DNA from: an uncultured Methanomassiliicoccales archaeon
Lineage (GTDB): Archaea; Thermoplasmatota; Thermoplasmata; Methanomassiliicoccales; UBA472
Direction: 5' to 3'
DNA: 64,000 nt
NCBI GenBank assembly: GCA_963695345.1
Contig: OY968769.1
Location: 672,001-736,000, forward strand
Part shown: positions 13,636 to 54,223 of the stretch, piece after piece
How the letters are laid out: every line of letters starts with the position of its first letter
Position numbering within the stretch: position 1 is the first letter of the stretch
Notes under the pieces: model-generated
Seen by the model: the letters and a program-made list of their open reading frames with translations, nothing else
What the model was told of the DNA's origin: nothing
The model's database searches: none
Program-made: the position numbers and the translations under genes

Positions 13636-14073
13636 CTAGATCCGGAACCCCATGGAGTCCGAAATCCCATTAGATACGACTACCTTAGCAGTATGGTCAC
13701 CGTTCGCAAGAATGATATTCAGATGGACCTCGAGGACGACACTGGGTCCCCAAATATTCGAGCCGCCGACGATGGTCCATGAACTGCTGTTTTGGTCCTT
13801 TCCGTCGATCATCACCAGTATGTCTGTGGGAAGGATCTGATTAGAGCCAGTGTTCTTGATGTAAACCGTAAGGTTCGAATCCTGATAAGGGACGACAGCC
13901 GGATCGTTGATGATCTTGATGCTGGTGTCCAATTTGTCGGAGAAGTTGTTCGCCCTCTTCTCCACCGCCTGGGCCATGTTGGACGATAGTCCGATGAAGA
14001 CCCCGGCGAGGGAGGCGGCCACCACGATGGCGGCGACGAAGAATATGACCTGCGTGGTTGATGAGTCTGACAT
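13636..14073 (-). CDS. flaG: Archaellum accessory protein FlaG
   Basis: SSTTQVIFFVAAIVVA N-helix, IINDP, YIKNTG. Confidence 0.88.
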   Translation of the reverse strand: MSDSSTTQVIFFVAAIVVAASLAGVFIGLSSNMAQAVEKRANNFSDKLDTSIKIINDPAVVPYQDSNLTVYIKNTGSNQILPTDILVMIDGKDQNSSSWTIVGGSNIWGPSVVLEVHLNIILANGDHTAKVVVSNGISDSMGFRI

Positions 14074-14087
14074 TGGAATCCCCTAAA

Positions 14088-14504
14088 CTAACTGAAGGCC
14101 ATCGCCCCGCAGTCGGTGACCAGTTCGATATGGGCGCCGACAATGTTGACGTCGGTATGGATGTATAGCACCTCTCCGGTCAACCATAGATGGGAAGCAG
14201 GATGTCCCTCGATGGACAAACTGGATATCGAAGAGGTTTCCAGCGTACCATTGATGAGAAGGTCCAGCCCGGAAACGTCCAGGGTGGTGCTTCCGTGGTT
14301 CATGACGGATATGGTCCCGTTCCCCGCGTCCACACCGATGATAGCTATCTCGGTCGCCTGAGCCTCCAAGGCCCGGTCGTAGTTGTTCTCCTGTGCCGTT
14401 TGGATCTTGTCCTGGTACATATTGATGGCCCCGAACATGGCCCCAAACAGAATAAGAAAAGAACTGAAAAGGATGGCTGAGGCGGCCGATACGCTAAGTC
14501 CCAT
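14088..14504 (-). CDS. flaF: Archaellum accessory protein FlaF
   Basis: MGLSVSAASAILF, NHGSTTL, WLTGE, VTDCG. Confidence 0.87.
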   Translation of the reverse strand: MGLSVSAASAILFSSFLILFGAMFGAINMYQDKIQTAQENNYDRALEAQATEIAIIGVDAGNGTISVMNHGSTTLDVSGLDLLINGTLETSSISSLSIEGHPASHLWLTGEVLYIHTDVNIVGAHIELVTDCGAMAFS

Positions 14505-14505
14505 C

Positions 14506-15528
14506 CTACTTCACGCCCATCCGTTTATACTCGGCCATCCACCGCTCCAGTGCAGCATAGTCCTCCTCTGGGACCTTCTCGCCTTTCAACTTCATGGTAT
14601 ATATCTGCTCCAGCTGGTGATCCACTAGCTTGTGGATCTGGTTGATGGAGTAGAAATCCACCACGAGGTTGGAGATTGGTTCCGGAGTCGGCGCCGGTTC
14701 TGGAGTTGGCGCTGATGCCTTCTCGATCGGTACTGGCTTGTCGACGATCAGAGGTCTGGTCGGCTTCGTCACTTTGGTTATCTTCACTTTCTCGACGAGC
14801 TGCGCGACGTCATCATCATCAAGCTCAGGCTTCAGGATCTTGTCCATAGGTTCTGCCTCGATGTAGTCCGGTATTTTTAGTGGCTTGCTTTGTTCCAAGG
14901 GCTTACCTTTGCCCAGGTCCAGGTCCAGGTCTAGGTCCAAGTCCTCAAGGTCGAGCTTTGGAGCCTCTTCCTTAGGGGCCGGAGCGCAGGGCTTCTCCTT
15001 GGCAGTGGGACATTCCGCTTTCTTTGGGCTGGGCATCTCCGAGTCCACGAATGGATTGTACTCGCGACTGACCGCTTCATAGACACAGAGCAGGTTCTTG
15101 ATGGAGTCGTTGATCCCATCGATCTCGGTCCTGATCTTGTCCATGTCGTTCTTCATCGCCTTGCTGCCCATGGTGATGGTCTCGAGCTGACCCTTCAGGT
15201 CAGTGATGGTTCCGTCCATGGCCTCCATCTTCTTGTTGTCGGATTTTGGGGCCAGGCCGGCCAGGGGATTGTCGTCGAGCTTCATTCCGCCCCCGCCAAG
15301 GCTTCCCCCGATGCCGCCCATGTCGCTCTTCAGTCCGAGCTTCATTGCATCCGCATCGAGATCCAGATCGAGATCCCCGACTGCGCTGGATAGGTCCTCT
15401 CCACCTCCTTTCTTATTCTTCTTGAACGTGAATACGGCGAAGAATGGAAAAAAGAGGGGCAGAGGAACTGCTCTATTGGTGGTCGTTCTATCAGTCCTCC
15501 GTTTTTTTATTCCTATTCCATCGCTCAT
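14506..15528 (-). CDS. Archaellum accessory FlaC(/D/E)-like protein
   Basis: Coiled coil followed by LLCVYEAVSREYNPF (FlaC-like motif), Pro/Lys/Asp-rich linker; start overlaps the flaB stop. Confidence 0.72.
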   Translation of the reverse strand: MSDGIGIKKRRTDRTTTNRAVPLPLFFPFFAVFTFKKNKKGGGEDLSSAVGDLDLDLDADAMKLGLKSDMGGIGGSLGGGGMKLDDNPLAGLAPKSDNKKMEAMDGTITDLKGQLETITMGSKAMKNDMDKIRTEIDGINDSIKNLLCVYEAVSREYNPFVDSEMPSPKKAECPTAKEKPCAPAPKEEAPKLDLEDLDLDLDLDLGKGKPLEQSKPLKIPDYIEAEPMDKILKPELDDDDVAQLVEKVKITKVTKPTRPLIVDKPVPIEKASAPTPEPAPTPEPISNLVVDFYSINQIHKLVDHQLEQIYTMKLKGEKVPEEDYAALERWMAEYKRMGVK

Positions 15529-16136
15529 TTCAGGTTGACGTAGTCCGTGCTGTAGTAGGACGGGGTCACGAAGTTGATCGTGGTCGGGGAACCGTAGGCC
15601 GGGACGATCTTGATCGTTGCGGACTGCGTGAATCCGAGAGCCAGGTTGCCGTCTGAGTCACAGATGGATATCGTGATCAGGTCACCCTGCTGGACGACGT
15701 AGTTGTTGGTGCCCCAGGTAGCTCCGCCGACGGTCTTAGCTAGGGTCTGGTTGGCGGTGTACTTGGCTGCAGTGGGGGCTCCGGTGGCCTGCATCTGCAT
15801 CATGTTGTTGGTGGTGCCGCTGATGAACTGGACGGTTACCTTGTCCATGTTAACTGCGGGGGATCCAGCCTGAAGCCTTATCTGTACGGTCAGGTTCTTG
15901 ATCGCGGATCTATCGGCGAGGACCTGTCCGGTCACGTCCTGAACGACGAATCCGGAAGCGACGTTGTTGATCGCCTGGTCACCAGTGTTCTGGGCTTGCT
16001 CACGGACTTTGTTAGCGGTACTGATCAATACGGACGCAGCAACCGCCGCGACGAGCACCATTGCGATGAATATGATCATCGTTCCGACGCCCATCTCTGC
16101 GCGCTTGTCCTTCTTCCAAGACGTTCTCATCTTCAT
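15525..16136 (-). CDS. flaB: Archaellin copy 1
   Basis: Class III signal KKDKRA|EMGVGTMIIFIAMVLVAAVAASVLI; GGAGA SD; 203 aa. Confidence 0.96.
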   Translation of the reverse strand: MKMRTSWKKDKRAEMGVGTMIIFIAMVLVAAVAASVLISTANKVREQAQNTGDQAINNVASGFVVQDVTGQVLADRSAIKNLTVQIRLQAGSPAVNMDKVTVQFISGTTNNMMQMQATGAPTAAKYTANQTLAKTVGGATWGTNNYVVQQGDLITISICDSDGNLALGFTQSATIKIVPAYGSPTTINFVTPSYYSTDYVNLK

Positions 16137-16298
16137 TTTCCTATCTCCTGTGATTACACAAGCGTCCCGGTTCCCCGGGCTGACATAGCTTGATCCTCTG
16201 GACTGTACGGTACTTTCTGTATCGTTCAATCAGTTCGGTACCATGAAAAGGCGGTTGAAGCTAGATAAACCCCGAAGAAATGGGAATCAAGCATGATA
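16137..16298 (-). promoter_or_regulatory. flaB1 upstream module: palindrome, TATA and structured leader
   Basis: TATCAtgctTGATT (16285-16298), TTTATCTA (~16262-16269), CTGATTG, CAAGC..ATGTCAG-CCCGG-GGAA-CCGGG-AC-GCTTG. Confidence 0.75.
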
Positions 16299-16844
16299 AC
16301 GTGACGGAACGAGTCAGTCACGAGAGAACGGTCCCTACGATGATCGACGTGGAATCTCCTTACTCCAGGTTTCGGAATGAAATACAGGGCTCGATCATCG
16401 AAGCGTTTGTTCTGTTACAGCACTGATGATTATATTAATTCTACTTCATTAATAACTATTTCAAGACATATGGCCGGATCGATCCTATGCCCATCGAACG
16501 AGCTAACGACAACGGCTAGACAACTAACGCATTGCGAATGATGGAATGGGAAGGTGGCGATGTTCCAAGGAACCAAGGACGGGCTCGGCAAAGTCAAATC
16601 GCTCCCAACGGATGCGCCTTGAGATCGACCTTGAAAATCGATCTGATCAATCATGATCCACCTGAATGGCGGAGGAGGCAGCCAAGGGCAAGCTATGACA
16701 GGACACATTAGACCTGGTGGCCCCATTGCTTCGAACTTGAACACAAGATCGCTCCACTCGGGTCGAACTGGCGTTAATGCTGGGAAGGGGTCAGACATGA
16801 GAAAAATATGGGCGGGGAATCCTTACTCGCGAAGGAACCCTTCA

Positions 16845-16880
16845 TTGAAATGAAAGTGAGGGGTTGCATTTCAACCCCCC
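16845..16880 (-). terminator. Hairpin plus pyrimidine tract after flaB2
   Basis: GGGGTTG/CAACCCC stem followed on the minus strand by TCACTTTCATTTC. Confidence 0.55.
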
Positions 16881-16900
16881 GTTGGGACAACAGCTCATCT

Positions 16901-17512
16901 TTACTTCAGGTTGACGTAGTCCGTGCTGTAGTAGGACGGGGTCACGAAGTTGATCGTGGTCGGGGAACCGTAGGCCGGGACGATCTTGATCGTTGCGGAC
17001 TGCGTGAATCCGAGAGCCAGGTTGCCGTCTGAGTCACAGATGGATATCGTGATCAGGTCACCCTGCTGGACGACGTAGTTGTTGGTGCCCCAGGTAGCTC
17101 CGCCGACGGTCTTAGCTAGGGTCTGGTTGGCGGTGTACTTGGCTGCAGTGGGGGCTCCGGTGGCCTGCATCTGCATCATGTTGTTGGTGGTGCCGCTGAT
17201 GAACTGGACGGTTACCTTGTCCATGTTAACTGCGGGGGATCCAGCCTGAAGCCTTATCTGTACGGTCAGGTTCTTGATCGCGGATCTATCGGCGAGGACC
17301 TGTCCGGTCACGTCCTGAACGACGAATCCGGAAGCGACATTGTTGATCGCCTGGTCACCAGTGTTCTGGGCCTGTTCTCTCACCTTGTTTGCAGTGCTGA
17401 TCAATACGGACGCAGCAACCGCGGCGACGAGCACCATTGCGATGAATATGATCATCGTTCCGACGCCCATCTCTGCGCGCTTGTCCTTCTTCCAAGACGT
17501 TCTCATTTTCAT
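16901..17512 (-). CDS. flaB: Archaellin copy 2
   Basis: Protein identical to copy 1. Confidence 0.96.
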   Translation of the reverse strand: MKMRTSWKKDKRAEMGVGTMIIFIAMVLVAAVAASVLISTANKVREQAQNTGDQAINNVASGFVVQDVTGQVLADRSAIKNLTVQIRLQAGSPAVNMDKVTVQFISGTTNNMMQMQATGAPTAAKYTANQTLAKTVGGATWGTNNYVVQQGDLITISICDSDGNLALGFTQSATIKIVPAYGSPTTINFVTPSYYSTDYVNLK

Positions 17513-17681
17513 GTTCTATCTCCTTTCTTTACACAAGCGTCCCGGAATCCGGGCTGACATTTGCTTGATCCTCAAGACCGAACAACGGGTTGCTTGTGCA
17601 GCGCGTCCTTCAATCAGGCGGTTACAATGAAAACCATTGTGAATCTTTATAAACCTAAAGAAACAGGTATCATGCATGATA
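17513..17681 (-). promoter_or_regulatory. flaB2 upstream module: palindrome, TATA and structured leader
   Basis: Perfect TATCATGCATGATA (17668-17681), TTTATAAA (17646-17653), ACCGCCTGATTG, CAAGC..ATGTCAG-CCCGG-ATT-CCGGG-AC-GCTTG. Confidence 0.75.
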
Positions 17682-17841
17682 ACGTTGGAAAATGCTAATT
17701 GGTGAGTTCTGGCTCGCGATATTTACTTTGAAAATTACGGAAGAACATATCCTTCGGAAAATATGTCGATCTTGGATCGAACGATGATACGATATCGATC
17801 GGAGTTGGAGCCCTGGTACAAGAAGTCAGAGAAATTACCTT

Positions 17842-17882
17842 TGAAAATATAGGGAAAAGGAAGGGCCGTTATTGGCCCTTCT
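17842..17882 (-). terminator. Hairpin plus T-tract after flaB3
   Basis: GAAGGGCC/GGCCCTTC stem followed on the minus strand by CTTTTCCCTATATTTT. Confidence 0.6.
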
Positions 17883-17900
17883 TGTTGTTACGCACCCACA

Positions 17901-18512
17901 TTACTTCAGGTTGACGAAGTCCGTTACGTAGAAGGACGGGGTCACGAAGTTGATGGTGGTCGGGGAACCGTAGGCCGGGACGATCTTGATCGTGGCGGCC
18001 TGCGTGAATCCGAGGGCCAGGTTATGCGCCGTGTTGCAGATCGAGATCGTGATCAGGTCTCCCTGCTGGACGACGTAGTTGTTGGTGCCCCAGGTAGCTC
18101 CGCCGACGGCCTTAGCGAGGGTCTGGTTGGCGGTGTACTTAGAGGTCGTCGGTGCTCCGGTGGCCTGCATCTGCATCATTATGCTGGTGGTGCCGCTGAT
18201 GAACTGGACGGTTACCTTGTCCATGTTAACTGCGGGGGATCCAGCCTGGAGCCTCAGTTGTACGGTGATGTTCTTGATCGCCGATCTGTCTGCGAGGACC
18301 TGTCCGGTCACGTCCTGAACGACGAATCCGGAAGCGACGTTGTTGATCGCCTGGTCGCCGGTGTTCTGGGCCTGCTCACGGACCTTGTTAGCGGTACTTA
18401 TCAATACGGACGCAGCAACCGCCGCGACGAGGATCATTGCGATGAAGATGATCATCGTGCCGACGCCCATCTCAGCGTGCTTGTCCTTCTTCCAAGACGT
18501 TCTCATTTTCAT
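17901..18512 (-). CDS. flaB: Archaellin copy 3 (divergent paralog)
   Basis: Same N-terminal helix; scattered substitutions, e.g. ICNTAHN vs ICDSDGN. Confidence 0.96.
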   Translation of the reverse strand: MKMRTSWKKDKHAEMGVGTMIIFIAMILVAAVAASVLISTANKVREQAQNTGDQAINNVASGFVVQDVTGQVLADRSAIKNITVQLRLQAGSPAVNMDKVTVQFISGTTSIMMQMQATGAPTTSKYTANQTLAKAVGGATWGTNNYVVQQGDLITISICNTAHNLALGFTQAATIKIVPAYGSPTTINFVTPSFYVTDFVNLK

Positions 18513-18675
18513 GTTCTATCTCCTTCAATGCTGCAAGCGTATGGTCATCCGAGCTGACATGGCCTGCTCCTCTAGACCGAAGAGTGTTCGAAGAACAACT
18601 CATCCGATCAGGCGGTTATTATGAAAACGGACAATGAGATATTAAACCCCAAAGAGACAGGTATCACCGATGATA
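18513..18675 (-). promoter_or_regulatory. flaB3 upstream module: palindrome, TATA and structured leader
   Basis: TATCAtcggTGATA (18662-18675), TTTAATAT, ACCGCCTGATCG, GCAGGC..ATGTCAGC..AC-GCTTGC. Confidence 0.72.
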
Positions 18676-19179
18676 ATCAACAATATCGAGAATAACTACC
18701 ATCTGGCTTCAACATCTTAAAGTGAAAATATCGATTCCTGAGAATAATGGGATCACGATTTGTCATAGGAATCCCGCAGGTTACCATGTTGTTCCAAATC
18801 GCAGGGCGGCAGGTCAAATGGTTTCGCCGAAACAAACATGGTCTGTCGGACACCGTTTCGGCAAGATTGGATGACAGCATATCCATGCGTCCAAGGGAAG
18901 TCGCATACGTAGACGTTCGATTCGATCAGGTATCGATGGGGCGAGAAGAGCCGACTTACTTGGATACTGCTTGGGTCTTGATTGGTCTTAGATCAAATTG
19001 AGGCCCTGTCGCTCTTGGCCATCGGAAATCATGGTGACCGACCGGGTCTATTTCCGGACGACTGGAGATGTACATTGCCCTAAGCATCTACGATTTGTTG
19101 GTGAGAAACACAGAACAACCCGGTTGAAAGTCCTACCTTGGATAATTCTGCTGATAGTCAAAAACAAGGCAAACAATAA

Positions 19180-19220
19180 CAGAAAAAATGAAAATAGGAA
19201 AGGAGAGGACAGAGTCCTCA
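19180..19220 (-). terminator. Hairpin plus T-tract after flaB4
   Basis: GAGGAC/GTCCTC stem followed on the minus strand by TCCTTTCCTATTTTCATTTTTTC. Confidence 0.6.
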
Positions 19221-19234
19221 GTTGTTCTTTACGA

Positions 19235-19846
19235 TTACTTCAGGTTGACGAAGTCCGTGCTGTAGTAGGACGGGGTCACGAAGTTGATCGTGGTCGGGGA
19301 ACCGTAGGCCGGGACGATCTTGATCGTTGCGGACTGCGTGAATCCGAGAGCCAGGTTGCCGTCTGAGTCACAGATGGATATCGTGATCAGGTCACCCTGC
19401 TGGACGACGTAGTTGTTGGTGCCCCAGGTAGCTCCGCCGACGGTCTTAGCTAGGGTCTGGTTGGCGGTGTACTTGGCTGCAGTGGGGGCTCCGGTGGCCT
19501 GCATCTGCATCATGTTGTTGGTGGTGCCGCTGATGAACTGGACGGTTACCTTGTCCATGTTAACTGCGGGGGATCCAGCCTGAAGCCTTATCTGTACGGT
19601 CAGGTTCTTGATCGCGGATCTATCGGCGAGGACCTGTCCGGTCACGTCCTGAACGACGAATCCGGAAGCGACGTTGTTGATCGCCTGGTCACCAGTGTTC
19701 TGGGCCTGTTCTCTCACCTTGTTTGCAGTGCTAATCAATACGGACGCAGCAACCGCCGCGACGAGCACCATTGCGATGAAGATGATCATCGTGCCGACGC
19801 CCATCTCTGCGCGCTTGTCCTTCTTCCAAGACGTTCTCATTTTCAT
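19235..19846 (-). CDS. flaB: Archaellin copy 4
   Basis: Differs from copies 1/2 by one residue (DFVNLK vs DYVNLK). Confidence 0.96.
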   Translation of the reverse strand: MKMRTSWKKDKRAEMGVGTMIIFIAMVLVAAVAASVLISTANKVREQAQNTGDQAINNVASGFVVQDVTGQVLADRSAIKNLTVQIRLQAGSPAVNMDKVTVQFISGTTNNMMQMQATGAPTAAKYTANQTLAKTVGGATWGTNNYVVQQGDLITISICDSDGNLALGFTQSATIKIVPAYGSPTTINFVTPSYYSTDFVNLK

Positions 19847-20007
19847 GTTACTATCTCCTATGGTTATACAAGCGTCCCGGAATCCGGGCTGACATAGCTT
19901 GTCACCTTGACGGTGAGATACTAACAGTACCTCAGCCAATCAGGCGGTTGAAAAGAAAACCCATTGGAAGTTAATAAACCCCGAATAGCTGGGAATCACT
20001 TTCGATA
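19847..20007 (-). promoter_or_regulatory. flaB4 upstream module: palindrome, TATA and structured leader
   Basis: TATCGaaagTGATT (19994-20007), TTTATTAA (19971-19978), ACCGCCTGATTG, ACAAGC..ATGTCAG-CCCGG-ATT-CCGGG-AC-GCTTGT. Confidence 0.75.
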
Positions 20008-20146
20008 ACGAAATTAATAGACTCAATGGCGAACTGGCATCCGTGTTCTTCATCGCCGAACGCCATGCTAGCACCGAACAGGGGAATGCTTGGAAAACGC
20101 CGGAAAGACCAATAAAAAAATTGGCTGGGTGATGATATTGACATCA

Positions 20147-20683
20147 TCACTTGTAACCGAACTTGCTGCGGAACAGGTTCAGTGAATAGGTGATCTCTTC
20201 CAGCGCCACCTCTCTCCCGGCCCATCCCTCGACGGTCGTGCCCTTGCCCTCTTCCAGACGCTTGTAGCTCTTGAAGAACTCGAATATCTCGTCCAGCATG
20301 TGCTTGGGCATGTCCTTGAGCTCGTAGTAGTCCTGGTTACGGGGATCGCCGGTGGCGACACAGAGGATCTTGTCGTCGCGGCCTTTCTCATCGCTCATCC
20401 TAAGGACCCCGATGGGTCGGGCCTCCACGACACACCCCGGGAACGTAGGCTCGGAGAGGATAACCAAGGCATCGATCGGGTCCCCGTCATCATAGTAGGT
20501 ACGGGGGATGAGTCCGTAGGCATGGGGGTAGACGACCGATGAATGCAGCACCCGGTCAAGCAGGATGCAGTCATATTCCTTTGATACCTCATACTTGTTC
20601 TTGCTGTCCCTGGGGGTCTCAATGATGACATTGACTATCTCTGGCGGATTGCGACCGGAGGGAACTTTCTTCCATAACGACAT
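20147..20683 (-). CDS. ppa: Inorganic pyrophosphatase (family I)
   Basis: KNKYE, YGLIPRT, DGDPID, DDKI, YKRLE. Confidence 0.96.
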   Translation of the reverse strand: MSLWKKVPSGRNPPEIVNVIIETPRDSKNKYEVSKEYDCILLDRVLHSSVVYPHAYGLIPRTYYDDGDPIDALVILSEPTFPGCVVEARPIGVLRMSDEKGRDDKILCVATGDPRNQDYYELKDMPKHMLDEIFEFFKSYKRLEEGKGTTVEGWAGREVALEEITYSLNLFRSKFGYK

Positions 20684-20858
20684 TTTGCACGCCCTATTGC
20701 TTCGGCGATAGGAGCTAGCTACTTATTGCTTTTGTCAGAACAATTACAGAAGTCAGAATTTTGGGCGAACCTATTGAAGATGGATGCCGTCCCAAGCTCG
20801 CCGTCCCGATTGTAAACATAAATATGCATACCCCGATATTGGAGGGCGGGATGCGCTG

Positions 20859-22176
20859 ATGGCAGTAGAAGATCCAGAATTGATAAAGCAGGTCTTGCTT
20901 CAGTTGTTCGTTCTCATTTCTTTCGCCATGGCGGCTGCCGTCATCTGCAAATTGATCAAGATACCGGTGGTAATCGGGGAAATCCTGGTAGGCATCATCA
21001 TCGGCAACCTTTACTTGGTGGGCGAGTCTGAATTGTTCTCGTTTCTCGGAAACACGGATTTGTTCAGTGCGCTCAAGCTCGGAACAGATGCCCAGGTCTT
21101 CGAGGTCTTCAAGCAATCTAGGAGTAATCTTTCTCCTTTTCGCCGTCGGACTGGTAACGCCGTTCAGCGAATTGCGAAAGGTAGGCAAGACAGCGTTCAT
21201 TGTGGCCTCGCTGGGAGTTGTCGTCCCCTTCGTTGGTGGATTTCTGTTCATGGCCGCCCTTAATTACGCCCTCATCCCATCCCTCTTCGTTGCAGCGGCA
21301 ATGGTCGCCACCAGCGTAGGCATCACCGCCAGGGTGATAAGCGATATGGGGTTGAGCGATGCCATCGAATCTCGGGTGATAATTGGTGCGGCGGTGATAG
21401 ATGATGTTCTCGGCATGCTTGTTCTTGCTGTCGTAATCGGAATCGCAGGCGGCTCTGGAACGGATATTGCCCAGACCGCGATAGTTGCCATCGAGGGTGT
21501 CATCTTCGTCATCGCGGTCATAATAATTGGCGGTATGGTCATTCCGAGGGTTCGCAAGGTGGCCAAAGAAAGGAAGACCGACCTAGAGCACCCGGTTAAG
21601 TGCGCGACCCCCCTAATCAGCCCTCTGCCATTTGCCCTTGTCGTGTGCTTCGGATTGTCTTTCATTGCAGGGACATTCGGACTCGCTGCCATAATCGGAT
21701 CGTTCCTGGCAGGAATGGCCTTCGCAGAGTTCCATGACCGCTGGCCTTGCAGGGAGAAGTTCGAACCGATCAATGAATTCCTGGTACCGTTCTTCTTCAT
21801 CTTCGTGGGGATACAGGTACAGCTCTCATCCTTCGTTGAAGTATTCTTCATTGGGTTGGCTTTGACCTTCATCGCCATTCTGACCAAGGTTATAGGATGT
21901 GGAATGGGGGCGAGGAGCATGGGCAGCAAATCGGCACTGATTGTGGGTGTTGGAATGTCCCCGAGAGGCGAAGTGGGGTTGATCGTGGCGACAATCGGCT
22001 TGGGCCTAGGTCAGGTATCGAATGCCATCTATTCCGTGGTTGTGTTCATGTCATTGGCAACGACCATCGCCGCCCCTCCGATGCTTACATACGCATTCAA
22101 GGCGAAGTTCAAAAAGAAAGTGAACAAGATAGAACGCGACGATGCGGATGGGCAGCTGAAGTTCCGAGATCGTTGA
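20859..22176 (+). CDS. CPA2 cation/proton antiporter (NapA-like), apparent frameshift near 21111
   Basis: PVVIGEILVGIIIG in frame 1; LGVIFLLFAVGL, ATSVGIT, AAVIDDV, PRGEVGL in frame 2. Confidence 0.88.
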
Positions 22177-53408: not shown

Positions 53409-54223
53409 TTCGACCCCTCCATCGGCTCTTCCGCGCTCTCCTCCAGCGCTCTCATCACCTTGAAAGCGTTGATCATCCTCTGGAAGGAGGTGGCCAGATC
53501 CTGAATCTCGTCCTTGGTGTTGACCGTTACCTTGTGGTCCAGGTTGCCCAGGCTGACATCGTCGGCCGCGCCGGTCAGGGAGACCAGCGGTCTGGTGATC
53601 CTTACCGAGGTCCAGATGGCCAGTGCTAGGGATACGGTTATGGCCAAACCTACCAGCATCAATACCGAGTTGGTGGTCGCGGTGGATACCTTCCCGGCGT
53701 TGTCGAGGGCGATCTGAACGTTCTGGTTGGAGGTGGCGACGAGGCTGGATATCCTGAGGTTAAGCGCTTCCATCTGGGCGTTCAGCTTCGAGGTTGCCTG
53801 GGTCAGCAGGGTCGCCTTGTTGTCTGCCTGACCGTTGTAGATGGCCAAGATGTCGGCCTTGTCCTGGAGGATGGTGGCCCCGATGACCTCGATCTCCTCG
53901 AGGTCCGAGACCAGAGCCGCATCGGTCGAGTTCGCAAGCAGGCCTGCCAGCGAGGTGGACATGCCATGAGTTCCGGCGTTCATCATCTGGTTGCCGATCT
54001 CAGTGCTTCCCTGTACGTACAGGGCGATGCCGTTCTGGAGCCCCCTGGCGGAGCTGAGATAGGTGTTGACGTCGACGCTTGTGGCAACCTGTGTCTTGAC
54101 GTTCTTGTCCTGTTCGTTCATCACTCCCAGCTGAGCGTTGATCATCAATGCCGAGCACAGGAATATGACGATTATCAGGGAGAACGATCCCATTAGCTTG
54201 TATAGTATTTTCATTGATTTCAC
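53405..54223 (-). CDS. Two-TM receptor with helical extracellular domain and terminal HAMP, no output domain
   Basis: TM1, helical sensor region, TM2, ITRPLVSL..GNL..DEIQDLATSFQRM, then ~20 aa and stop. Confidence 0.88.
   Translation of the reverse strand: MKSMKILYKLMGSFSLIIVIFLCSALMINAQLGVMNEQDKNVKTQVATSVDVNTYLSSARGLQNGIALYVQGSTEIGNQMMNAGTHGMSTSLAGLLANSTDAALVSDLEEIEVIGATILQDKADILAIYNGQADNKATLLTQATSKLNAQMEALNLRISSLVATSNQNVQIALDNAGKVSTATTNSVLMLVGLAITVSLALAIWTSVRITRPLVSLTGAADDVSLGNLDHKVTVNTKDEIQDLATSFQRMINAFKVMRALEESAEEPMEGSK

Follow-up and report, generated by a model that had tools for sequence, protein, structure and literature searches.

We describe here a structured RNA element that precedes the archaellin genes of an uncultured Methanomassiliicoccales archaeon. 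In the window, a stretch of 64,000 nucleotides (nt) of contig OY968769.1 (assembly GCA_963695345.1, positions 672,001 to 736,000), the minus strand carries an archaellum operon of the classical euryarchaeal type with four tandem arlB (archaellin) genes, and before each of the four lies a module of 104-111 nt, situated between an archaeal promoter and the ribosome-binding site (Table 1). The module is a new cis-acting 5' leader motif: it is conserved, it folds as the sense strand, it is dedicated to archaellin genes and it belongs to no described RNA family. The original prediction, made from the letters of this DNA, had placed four leaders of common layout in front of these genes, and the placements obtained with R1, a covariance model built from 17 leaders (MAFFT alignment A3), agree with it.

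The fold was evaluated on alignment A5, which holds 27 leaders (25 of them distinct) and 21 modelled pairs and was fitted to the model. In the 25 distinct leaders, 93.1% of the 518 cells belonging to these pairs are paired, and 13 of the 21 pairs are changed on both sides, whereas shuffles reach 3.9±1.3 (13 in 0 of 500) and the slid controls never more than 5; the covariation check proposed along with the original prediction was thus answered in its favour. The changes on both sides are spread over four helices, P1 (5/7), P2 (4/4), P3 (1/5) and P4 (3/5); in P4, for example, five sequences have CCUGG/CCAGG and one has CCCGA/UCGGG in place of CCCGG/CCGGG. On a structure-blind MAFFT alignment, 7 of 15 pairs were compensated. 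Because there are 29 G·U cells against 8 A·C cells, the folded molecule is the sense-strand RNA of arlB and not a DNA palindrome. When 19 distinct leaders were folded singly, a 5'-terminal hairpin (hairpin I) followed by a second stem-loop appeared in all 19, and P3 together with P4 formed in 16 of them.

Hairpin I begins with the pairing of the 5' end with a RUC-NAG-RNG segment (P1), continues through a bulge that is mostly AA and is capped by P2, in which GAGRUG... pairs with ...YCUC. The sequence of P2 is variable and fully compensated; taking P1 and P2 together, 9 of 11 pairs show changes on both sides across the 25 sequences. The one or two variable hairpins expected in this part of the leader are really one long hairpin closed by P1, a helix that had been overlooked. 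The outermost pairing of the 5' end (P1a) is weak and shifts its register; with its own partner it reaches -4.5 kcal/mol versus -3.97 kcal/mol with swapped partners, and 13 of 2000 permutations were as low, which gives it moderate support.

Hairpin II was recovered much as it had been read from the letters. Its basal stem P3 is CAAGC/GCUUG, with the versions GCAGGC/GCUUGC in copy 3 and ACAAGC/GCUUGU in copy 4; it encloses an asymmetric and nearly invariant internal loop, N-AUGUCAG opposite AC, and the apical stem P4 is CCCGG/CCGGG with differing loops in copies 1, 2 and 4 and is degenerate in copy 3, where it reads CTCGG/CCAT and the minimum free energy (MFE) fold takes an alternative GUCA/UGAC pairing. 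The loops of P2 and P4 vary freely. Within the internal loop, a GU/AC pairing of Watson-Crick type is possible in 96% of the cells; it shows no covariation and is uninformative. A pseudoknot between the 5' CUGAY and the GUCAG of this loop had also been suggested, and it did not hold: the CUGAU-GUCAG complementarity needs a terminal G·U wobble, and the five pairs, pairable in 92.6% of cells, show 0 compensatory changes, are indistinguishable from shuffles and compete with P1. The 5' nucleotides involved covary within P1 instead (column 12 with 57: UA 11, CG 6, UG 6), so that the pseudoknot is at best an alternative conformer.

Conservation of the motif was compared with that of the adjacent gene. 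Between species, the identity of hairpin II is 72-92%, as opposed to 53-68% at the four-fold third positions of the gene (7/7 comparisons), and that of hairpin I is 54-72%, with compensation; the linker is poorly conserved. In addition, leaders outside the R1 training set, two in genome G001 and those of metagenome loci L059-L064, were recovered at E-values of 1e-14 to 1e-23. The supposition that conservation of the leader is selective is borne out by both results.

The motif is genus-restricted and strictly archaellin-specific. Of 61 related genomes, 26 encode archaellin homologs, and R1 gave 20 matches (E 2e-12 to 2e-24) in 8/8 genomes of the genus, every one immediately 5' of a tandem archaellin gene; a search of related Methanomassiliicoccales genomes, another of the checks proposed at the outset, therefore found the motif, and found it upstream of archaellins only. 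R1 had no match in 39 genomes from seven other genera of the family, and with its filters off it had no significant match among 25 loci from other genera or of the second archaellin paralog type (55-62% identical), the best E being 0.1. In the genome that carries the window (G000) the four window copies are its only matches, and the motif was not found at two extra archaellin paralogs. These two paralogs lie outside the window, at C1:894373-894990 (+) and 542970-543563 (-), and are 57-62% identical. A second model, R2, made of hairpin II alone and used to search five genomes for a regulon, gave 15 matches of 39.5-56.2 bits, all of them arlB leaders, and found no site beyond these, the next best score being 16.9 bits; a factor binding hairpin II, if there is any, would have no other target of such a shape. 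That next best match, GATGTCAGCCTGGGCAACCTGGAC at 53537-53560 on the minus strand, has a partial likeness to the internal loop and P4 (R1 E 0.71; R2 16.9 bits) and was discarded as a chance match because it is inside an open reading frame (ORF) of 272 amino acids (aa).

The scan of positions 14000-21500 on both strands with Rfam 15 (cmscan, E up to 10) gave no credible match, only STnc550 at 14.1 bits (cut-off 48) and sR1 at 13.8 bits (cut-off 45), in line with the statement that the leader is not a c-di-GMP or c-di-AMP element nor a known ribozyme. Two known motifs were also set aside. In a kink-turn, tandem sheared G·A and A·G pairs follow a bulge of three nucleotides, so that both strands carry GA. 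In hairpin II the long strand is N-A-U-G-U-C-A-G and the short strand is AC in 21 of 25 distinct hairpins (GC, TC or AG in the rest) and not GA, and with this the idea of an L7Ae site falls. The archaeal bulge-helix-bulge, a splicing motif, has two three-nucleotide bulges on opposite strands, 4 base pairs (bp) apart; the bulges predicted here, NAU and CAG, are on the same strand and 2 bp apart.

When the upstream regions of the four arlB genes were aligned, a conserved block became apparent from about -165 to the ATG. Toward the gene it comprises a dyad box GTTATCA-N4-TGAT(A/T), GGGG, a TATA box (TTTATCTA or TTTATTAA), TTTTC and AACCGCCUGAYYG, and then a variable segment, the stem of hairpin II, a variable A-rich linker, GGAGAUAG and AUG; the last two elements had been described correctly. 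Within the window, the gene-proximal 3' half is the most similar part of the leader. The claim that similarity is confined to the module did not hold, as the promoter block (GTTATCA-N4-TGAT, TATA, TTTTC) is conserved some 60 nt further upstream; the remainder of the spacers between the arlB genes, which measure ~390-770 nt, could not be aligned. In 24/24 leaders of the genus the TATA box is located at -30 to -23 relative to the first A of AACCG, and the leader of copy 4 starts 29 nt past the first T of its TATA box. Since this is the usual archaeal spacing, the module is predicted to be a 5' untranslated region (5'UTR) beginning at AACCG and 104-111 nt long, with the start placed from promoter geometry only.

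Public RNA data for the region are scant. Two runs, both available as assembled contigs, share little of it (0.11 and 0.06 of words); within 19200-20250 their contigs match stretches of arlB copy 4, and a contig of 153 nt, with 8 differences, ends 31 nt 5' of the copy 4 ATG, the rest of the leader being uncovered. A 347-nt contig of a wetland metatranscriptome run (X1) is identical to arlB copy 4 at 19296-19642, so the organism or a very close relative is present in the X1 library; transcription is not proven by this, as DNA may occur in RNA libraries.

The ribosome-binding site GGAGAUAG, invariant in 25/25 leaders, is predicted to be accessible: in the predicted ensembles, GGAGA has a median unpaired probability of 0.76. 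Hairpin II lies 8-13 nt 5' of this site. The 3' end of the 16S rRNA (...GGAUCACCUCCU) is complementary to only the GGAG of GGAGAUAG, and the AUAG that follows is invariant with no explanation from ribosome pairing. At the other extreme of the leader, the predicted number of unpaired 5' nucleotides has a median of 2 (range 0-5; 24 leaders, start predicted from TATA spacing). The 5' strand of P2 contains a semi-conserved GAGGUG/GAGAUG (e.g. 19928-19933) that is a better complement of the 16S 3' end than the real ribosome site, and its partner (U)AUCUC could pair with the GGAGAUA of that site in some copies. A switch between P2 and the ribosome site was not adopted, as this pairing is not kept in all copies and fails in window copies 1 and 2.

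We propose that the leader is modular, with hairpin I acting as a protective 5' helix and hairpin II as a sequence-specific operator bound by a factor, and we hold this reading with moderate confidence. Each arlB mRNA would begin with a folded leader of ~105 nt made of two modules. In the first, the initial nucleotides of the transcript would pair with the segment before hairpin II to form P1, capped by P2, leaving ~2-3 nt free at the 5' end, and the resulting helix may shield a very abundant mRNA from 5'-end-dependent decay. Such decay is plausible in this organism, whose genome has genes for ribonucleases of the beta-CASP/RMMBL type, among them an RNase-J-like ORF that scores under the family cut-off. 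In the second, the internal loop of hairpin II would be the recognition site of a trans-acting factor, most likely a protein, that might tune the initiation of archaellin translation or the stability of the mRNA, for instance so that subunits are made in step with filament assembly or in response to a motility signal.

Several points weigh against this reading. The 25 sequences come from ~8 species and a few metagenome contigs, many of them are paralogs and not independent, and the alignment was fitted to the model. Folding of single sequences gave modest z values (-2.56, -1.60, -0.41 and -2.48 for the four window copies); the support for the structure is the comparison between sequences, not thermodynamics. 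In P3 a single pair has changes in both strands, and no variation in the internal loop is informative; because these parts give so little covariation other sequence-level constraints may act on hairpin II; copy 3 of the window lacks P4. The stabilising role of hairpin I is drawn by analogy only, no candidate binding protein was found, and the RNA data, being short assembled contigs, cannot reveal the transcription start.

A bolder version of this proposal takes hairpin II as the operator of an archaellum-specific post-transcriptional checkpoint, in which a dedicated protein or a small ligand would read AUGUCAG and so link the translation of archaellin to the assembly of the filament or to a signal for motility. 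We put it forward as a tentative possibility, and would not bet on it as it stands. If true, it would be an archaeal counterpart, of independent origin, to the control that CsrA-FliW or FlbT exert on flagellin in bacteria, and the unrelated but similarly built leaders of sister genera would be lineage-specific versions of the same checkpoint. A CsrA/FliW-type leader by homology was discarded, since neither CsrA (PF02599) nor FliW (PF02623) was found in G000 (a single contig, 85% complete by marker estimate). A GGA in the P4 loop occurs in the copies of this genome and in one metagenome leader, L060.

The leader could also be constitutive: its structure would stabilise the mRNA and space or present the ribosome site so that expression is very high, and neither a factor nor a signal would be involved. 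Nearly every copy is predicted to have a 5'-terminal helix and an accessible ribosome site, which fits such a role, as do the seven unrelated leaders examined in other genera, which pair near the assumed 5' end and then form one or more stem-loops. Archaellin is, moreover, the major filament subunit, and a Nanopore study of Pyrococcus furiosus reports that the major archaellin is transcribed in large excess (bioRxiv 10.1101/2019.12.18.880849). However, a constitutive structure leaves unexplained why AUGUCAG/AC and the AUAG after GGAG are nearly invariant while the neighbouring helices change with compensation, and why hairpin II is conserved above the synonymous sites, and for these reasons we regard it as unlikely.

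More doubtful still is a riboswitch, in which the loops of the hairpins would be the pocket for a small molecule, such as a motility-linked nucleotide second messenger, and an exchange between P1 and the CUGAY:GUCAG form would alter translation or stability. Covarying helices do flank invariant unpaired nucleotides, the motif is explained by no Rfam family, and the pairability of CUGAY/GUCAG in 92.6% of the cells, mutually exclusive with P1, has the layout of a two-state device. Nevertheless, the pseudoknot is free of compensatory change and scores as shuffles do, the P4 and P2 loops are free to vary, and an expression platform is not predicted, the ribosome site being mostly unpaired and no U-tract following hairpin II. 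The motif is also small, two simple hairpins in one genus, while the known classes of metabolite riboswitches are usually broader in distribution.

The AUG of the internal loop, invariant in 25/25 leaders, could be taken for the start codon of a short upstream ORF, or of an N-terminal extension of the archaellin, that regulates arlB; its frame stops exactly at the UAG of GGAGAUAG in 7 of 25 leaders and continues into arlB in 6 of 25. This is very improbable, as the frame relative to arlB is 0, 1 or 2 in 10, 7 and 8 of the 25 leaders, the closed frames have 4-17 residues, the peptide is unconserved past an MS(A/T/P) that the RNA motif itself fixes, no ribosome-binding sequence precedes the AUG, and P4 covaries as RNA and not as codons. 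We give equally little credit to an element at the DNA level, by which the blocks and palindromes past the TATA box would be operators for transcription factors or promoter-proximal sequence. In its favour, AACYGCCUGAU at the predicted start also opens an otherwise different leader in another family (L010/L011), and the 5' block contains TGAT, a half-site of the upstream box; on the other hand, the pairing is strand-specific (G·U 29 vs A·C 8), the helices stay paired despite changes in sequence, loop length and spacing, and the paired segments are as far as 50 nt apart. Finally, that the leaders were merely copied with their genes in a recent tandem duplication or gene conversion, as the 99-100% identity of three of the four window ArlB proteins and the greater similarity of the gene-proximal half of the leader might suggest, is next to inconceivable, for the motif is kept in species whose archaellins are only 60-70% identical, exceeds the synonymous sites in conservation and shows compensatory changes.

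The modular leader that we favour, with a protective hairpin I and an operator hairpin II, has parallels in known systems. In Bacillus subtilis, the leader of the flagellin gene hag is regulated by CsrA and FliW. The arlB leader likewise belongs to a filament subunit, is structured and places a hairpin just 5' of the ribosome site, with the matching of synthesis to assembly as the shared logic; unlike hag, it is archaeal, CsrA and FliW were not found in the genome, the hairpin loops have no conserved GGA and no occlusion of the ribosome site is predicted. In Caulobacter, FlbT and FlaF act on flagellin mRNA through its 5'UTR, and a protein acting on the archaellin 5'UTR would be the same type of control, with no homology expected. 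The leader of E. coli ompA is a 5'-terminal stabiliser hairpin. In B. subtilis there are leaders that block RNase J1 (see the work on hbs, PMC5737220). As with such stabilisers, in the arlB leader a helix lies within a few nucleotides of the predicted 5' end of an abundant mRNA in a genome with beta-CASP ribonucleases; unlike them, hairpin I conserves sequence (CCUGAYYGAA, GAGRUG) beyond what protection needs, and its start is only predicted. An archaeal precedent for hairpin II is the operator of the Methanococcus ribosomal-protein L1 mRNA, where translation is controlled by a protein bound to the asymmetric internal loop of a hairpin in the leader; here the sequence and the class of gene differ, and no rRNA mimicry was identified. 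A bacterial cis-regulatory motif of Rfam near flagellar genes, such as the flg-Rhizobiales motif, similarly ties a conserved structure to motility genes, and no Rfam model matches the arlB leader.

Table 1. Coordinates of the arlB genes, their leaders and the associated promoter and ribosome-binding elements in the window.
Feature	Position	Strand	Remarks
Leader (predicted 5'UTR), arlB copy 1	16137..16240	-	R1 placement 16134-16240, 87.0 bits
Leader (predicted 5'UTR), arlB copy 2	17513..17623	-	R1 placement 17509-17623, 84.2 bits
Leader, arlB copy 3 (divergent, degenerate P4)	18513..18617	-	R1 placement 18509-18617, 81.1 bits
Leader (predicted 5'UTR), arlB copy 4	19847..19949	-	R1 placement 19844-19949, 97.9 bits, E 7.6e-22
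Hairpin I, copy 1	16195..16238	-	From MFE and covariation
Hairpin I, copy 2	17570..17621	-	From MFE and covariation
Hairpin I, copy 3	18569..18615	-	From MFE and covariation
Hairpin I, copy 4	19903..19946	-	P1 is 5' CCGCCUGAUUG with CCGUCAAGGUG; P2 variable; per-sequence MFE
Hairpin II, copy 1	16159..16192	-	P4 CCCGG/CCGGG
Hairpin II, copy 2	17534..17567	-	P4 CCCGG/CCGGG
Hairpin II, copy 3	18534..18566	-	P3 CAGGC/GCUUG, including a G·U pair; P4 unformed
Hairpin II, copy 4	19869..19901	-	P3 CAAGC/GCUUG; loop UAUGUCAG opposite AC; P4 CCCGG/CCGGG
Ribosome-binding site GGAGAUAG, copies 1, 2, 3, 4	16141-16148, 17516-17523, 18516-18523, 19851-19858	-	Invariant in 25/25 leaders
Promoter, copy 1	16262..16300	-	Box 16285-16300, TATA 16262-16269
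Promoter, copy 2	17646..17683	-	Box 17668-17683 (perfect dyad TATCATGCATGATA), TATA 17646-17653
Promoter, copy 3	18639..18677	-	Box 18662-18677, TATA 18639-18646
Promoter, copy 4	19971..20009	-	Box GTTATCGAAAGTGATT 19994-20009, TATA TTTATTAA 19971-19978
arlB copy 1	15525..16136	-	Archaellin, 203 aa; ATG at 16136
arlB copy 2 (protein P0001)	16901..17512	-	Archaellin, 203 aa; ATG at 17512
arlB copy 3	17901..18512	-	Archaellin, 203 aa; ATG at 18512; 92% identical to copy 2
arlB copy 4	19235..19846	-	Archaellin, 203 aa; ATG at 19846

The arlB genes are followed on their 3' side by genes for a FlaC-domain protein, a 138-aa ORF, a protein of the Arch_flagellin fold, the KaiC-like ArlH, the ATPase ArlI (T2SSE) and the membrane protein ArlJ (T2SSF). 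Each arlB gene has a hairpin and then a stretch rich in T behind it, and because of this the four genes are probably separate transcription units. A scan for bacterial-type promoters and terminators gave counts not above those of shuffles (4 vs 4.2 and 5 vs 4.2), with two terminator-like hairpins directly after the stops of arlB copies 2 and 3. Copies 1, 2 and 4 encode ArlB proteins of 99-100% identity, with copy 3 at 92%; the leaders of the three near-identical copies differ nevertheless, chiefly in P2 and with compensation, which suggests a gene conversion that homogenises the arlB coding regions and ends inside the leader. The spacer of arlB copies 2 and 1 contains an ORF of 122 aa (16430-16798, minus strand) with no Pfam match, which may be no gene.

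The dyad box was also considered as a regulatory site. Its form GTTATC(A/G)-N4-TGAT(A/T) is present 29-30 nt 5' of the TATA box in every arlB promoter, and the genome has 10 instances of the strict pattern, against 0-1 in shuffles. The sites in the genome are the four window promoters, G000:C1:894230 (+) and six others, one box being ~140 nt 5' of an archaellin paralog of the second type. The box likewise precedes archaellin promoters of other genera (L009, L012, L014, L022-L024), where the TATA box comes 29-36 nt further on and lies 138-164 nt before the archaellin ATG. It is a candidate binding site for a conserved transcription factor of the motility regulon, and as such adds a candidate transcriptional regulon for the archaellin genes. 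Its position resembles that of the ArnR inverted repeats 5' of the BRE in Sulfolobus, as described in a 2021 archaellation review (PMC10117864).

Outside the genus, the archaellin leaders examined in four other genera (7/7) have predicted lengths of 112-152 nt and sequences unrelated to the motif; in all seven, pairing sets in 3-5 nt past the assumed start and one or more additional stem-loops come after it, which is weak evidence as the start is assumed. Long structured archaellin leaders may be general in the family, with second hairpins that are lineage-specific. The g3 and g8 loci (L012, L014, L022, L023, L024) share a different conserved core, GGGUUAGYGCAG ... CACUAG..UAGUGRAACGGCUGGCC, situated ~25-70 nt 5' of the archaellin ATG, whose fold is a hairpin containing an asymmetric internal loop; their leaders, of a predicted 112-138 nt, start to pair near the assumed 5' end. 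In another family of the order, the leaders L010/L011 (G053, G059) begin with UAACUGCCUGAUGAG, like the AACCGCCUGAYYGA described here, and are unrelated in the rest; R1 does not match them. In that family a leader begins with AACUGCCUGAUGAG, which resembles the 5' end of the motif. It may be that the 5' block arose before the other parts of the motif, or that it acts at the DNA level where transcription starts.

To our knowledge, very few cis-regulatory RNAs are known in Archaea, and the control of archaellum synthesis has been described almost entirely at the level of transcription. We found no description of an archaellin leader RNA in the literature searched; start-site tables in the supplements of archaeal transcriptomes might bear on long archaellin leaders of other species. 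In the accessible part of the 2021 review, the terms UTR, untranslated, mRNA stability and stem-loop never occur and post-transcriptional control is only "hinted at" (PMC10117864). The group that carries the motif consists of environmental wetland methanogens (Methanomassiliicoccales). Two isolates are described as non-motile. An archaellin-only leader backed by covariation gives, in these methanogens, a testable handle on the post-transcriptional control of archaeal motility.

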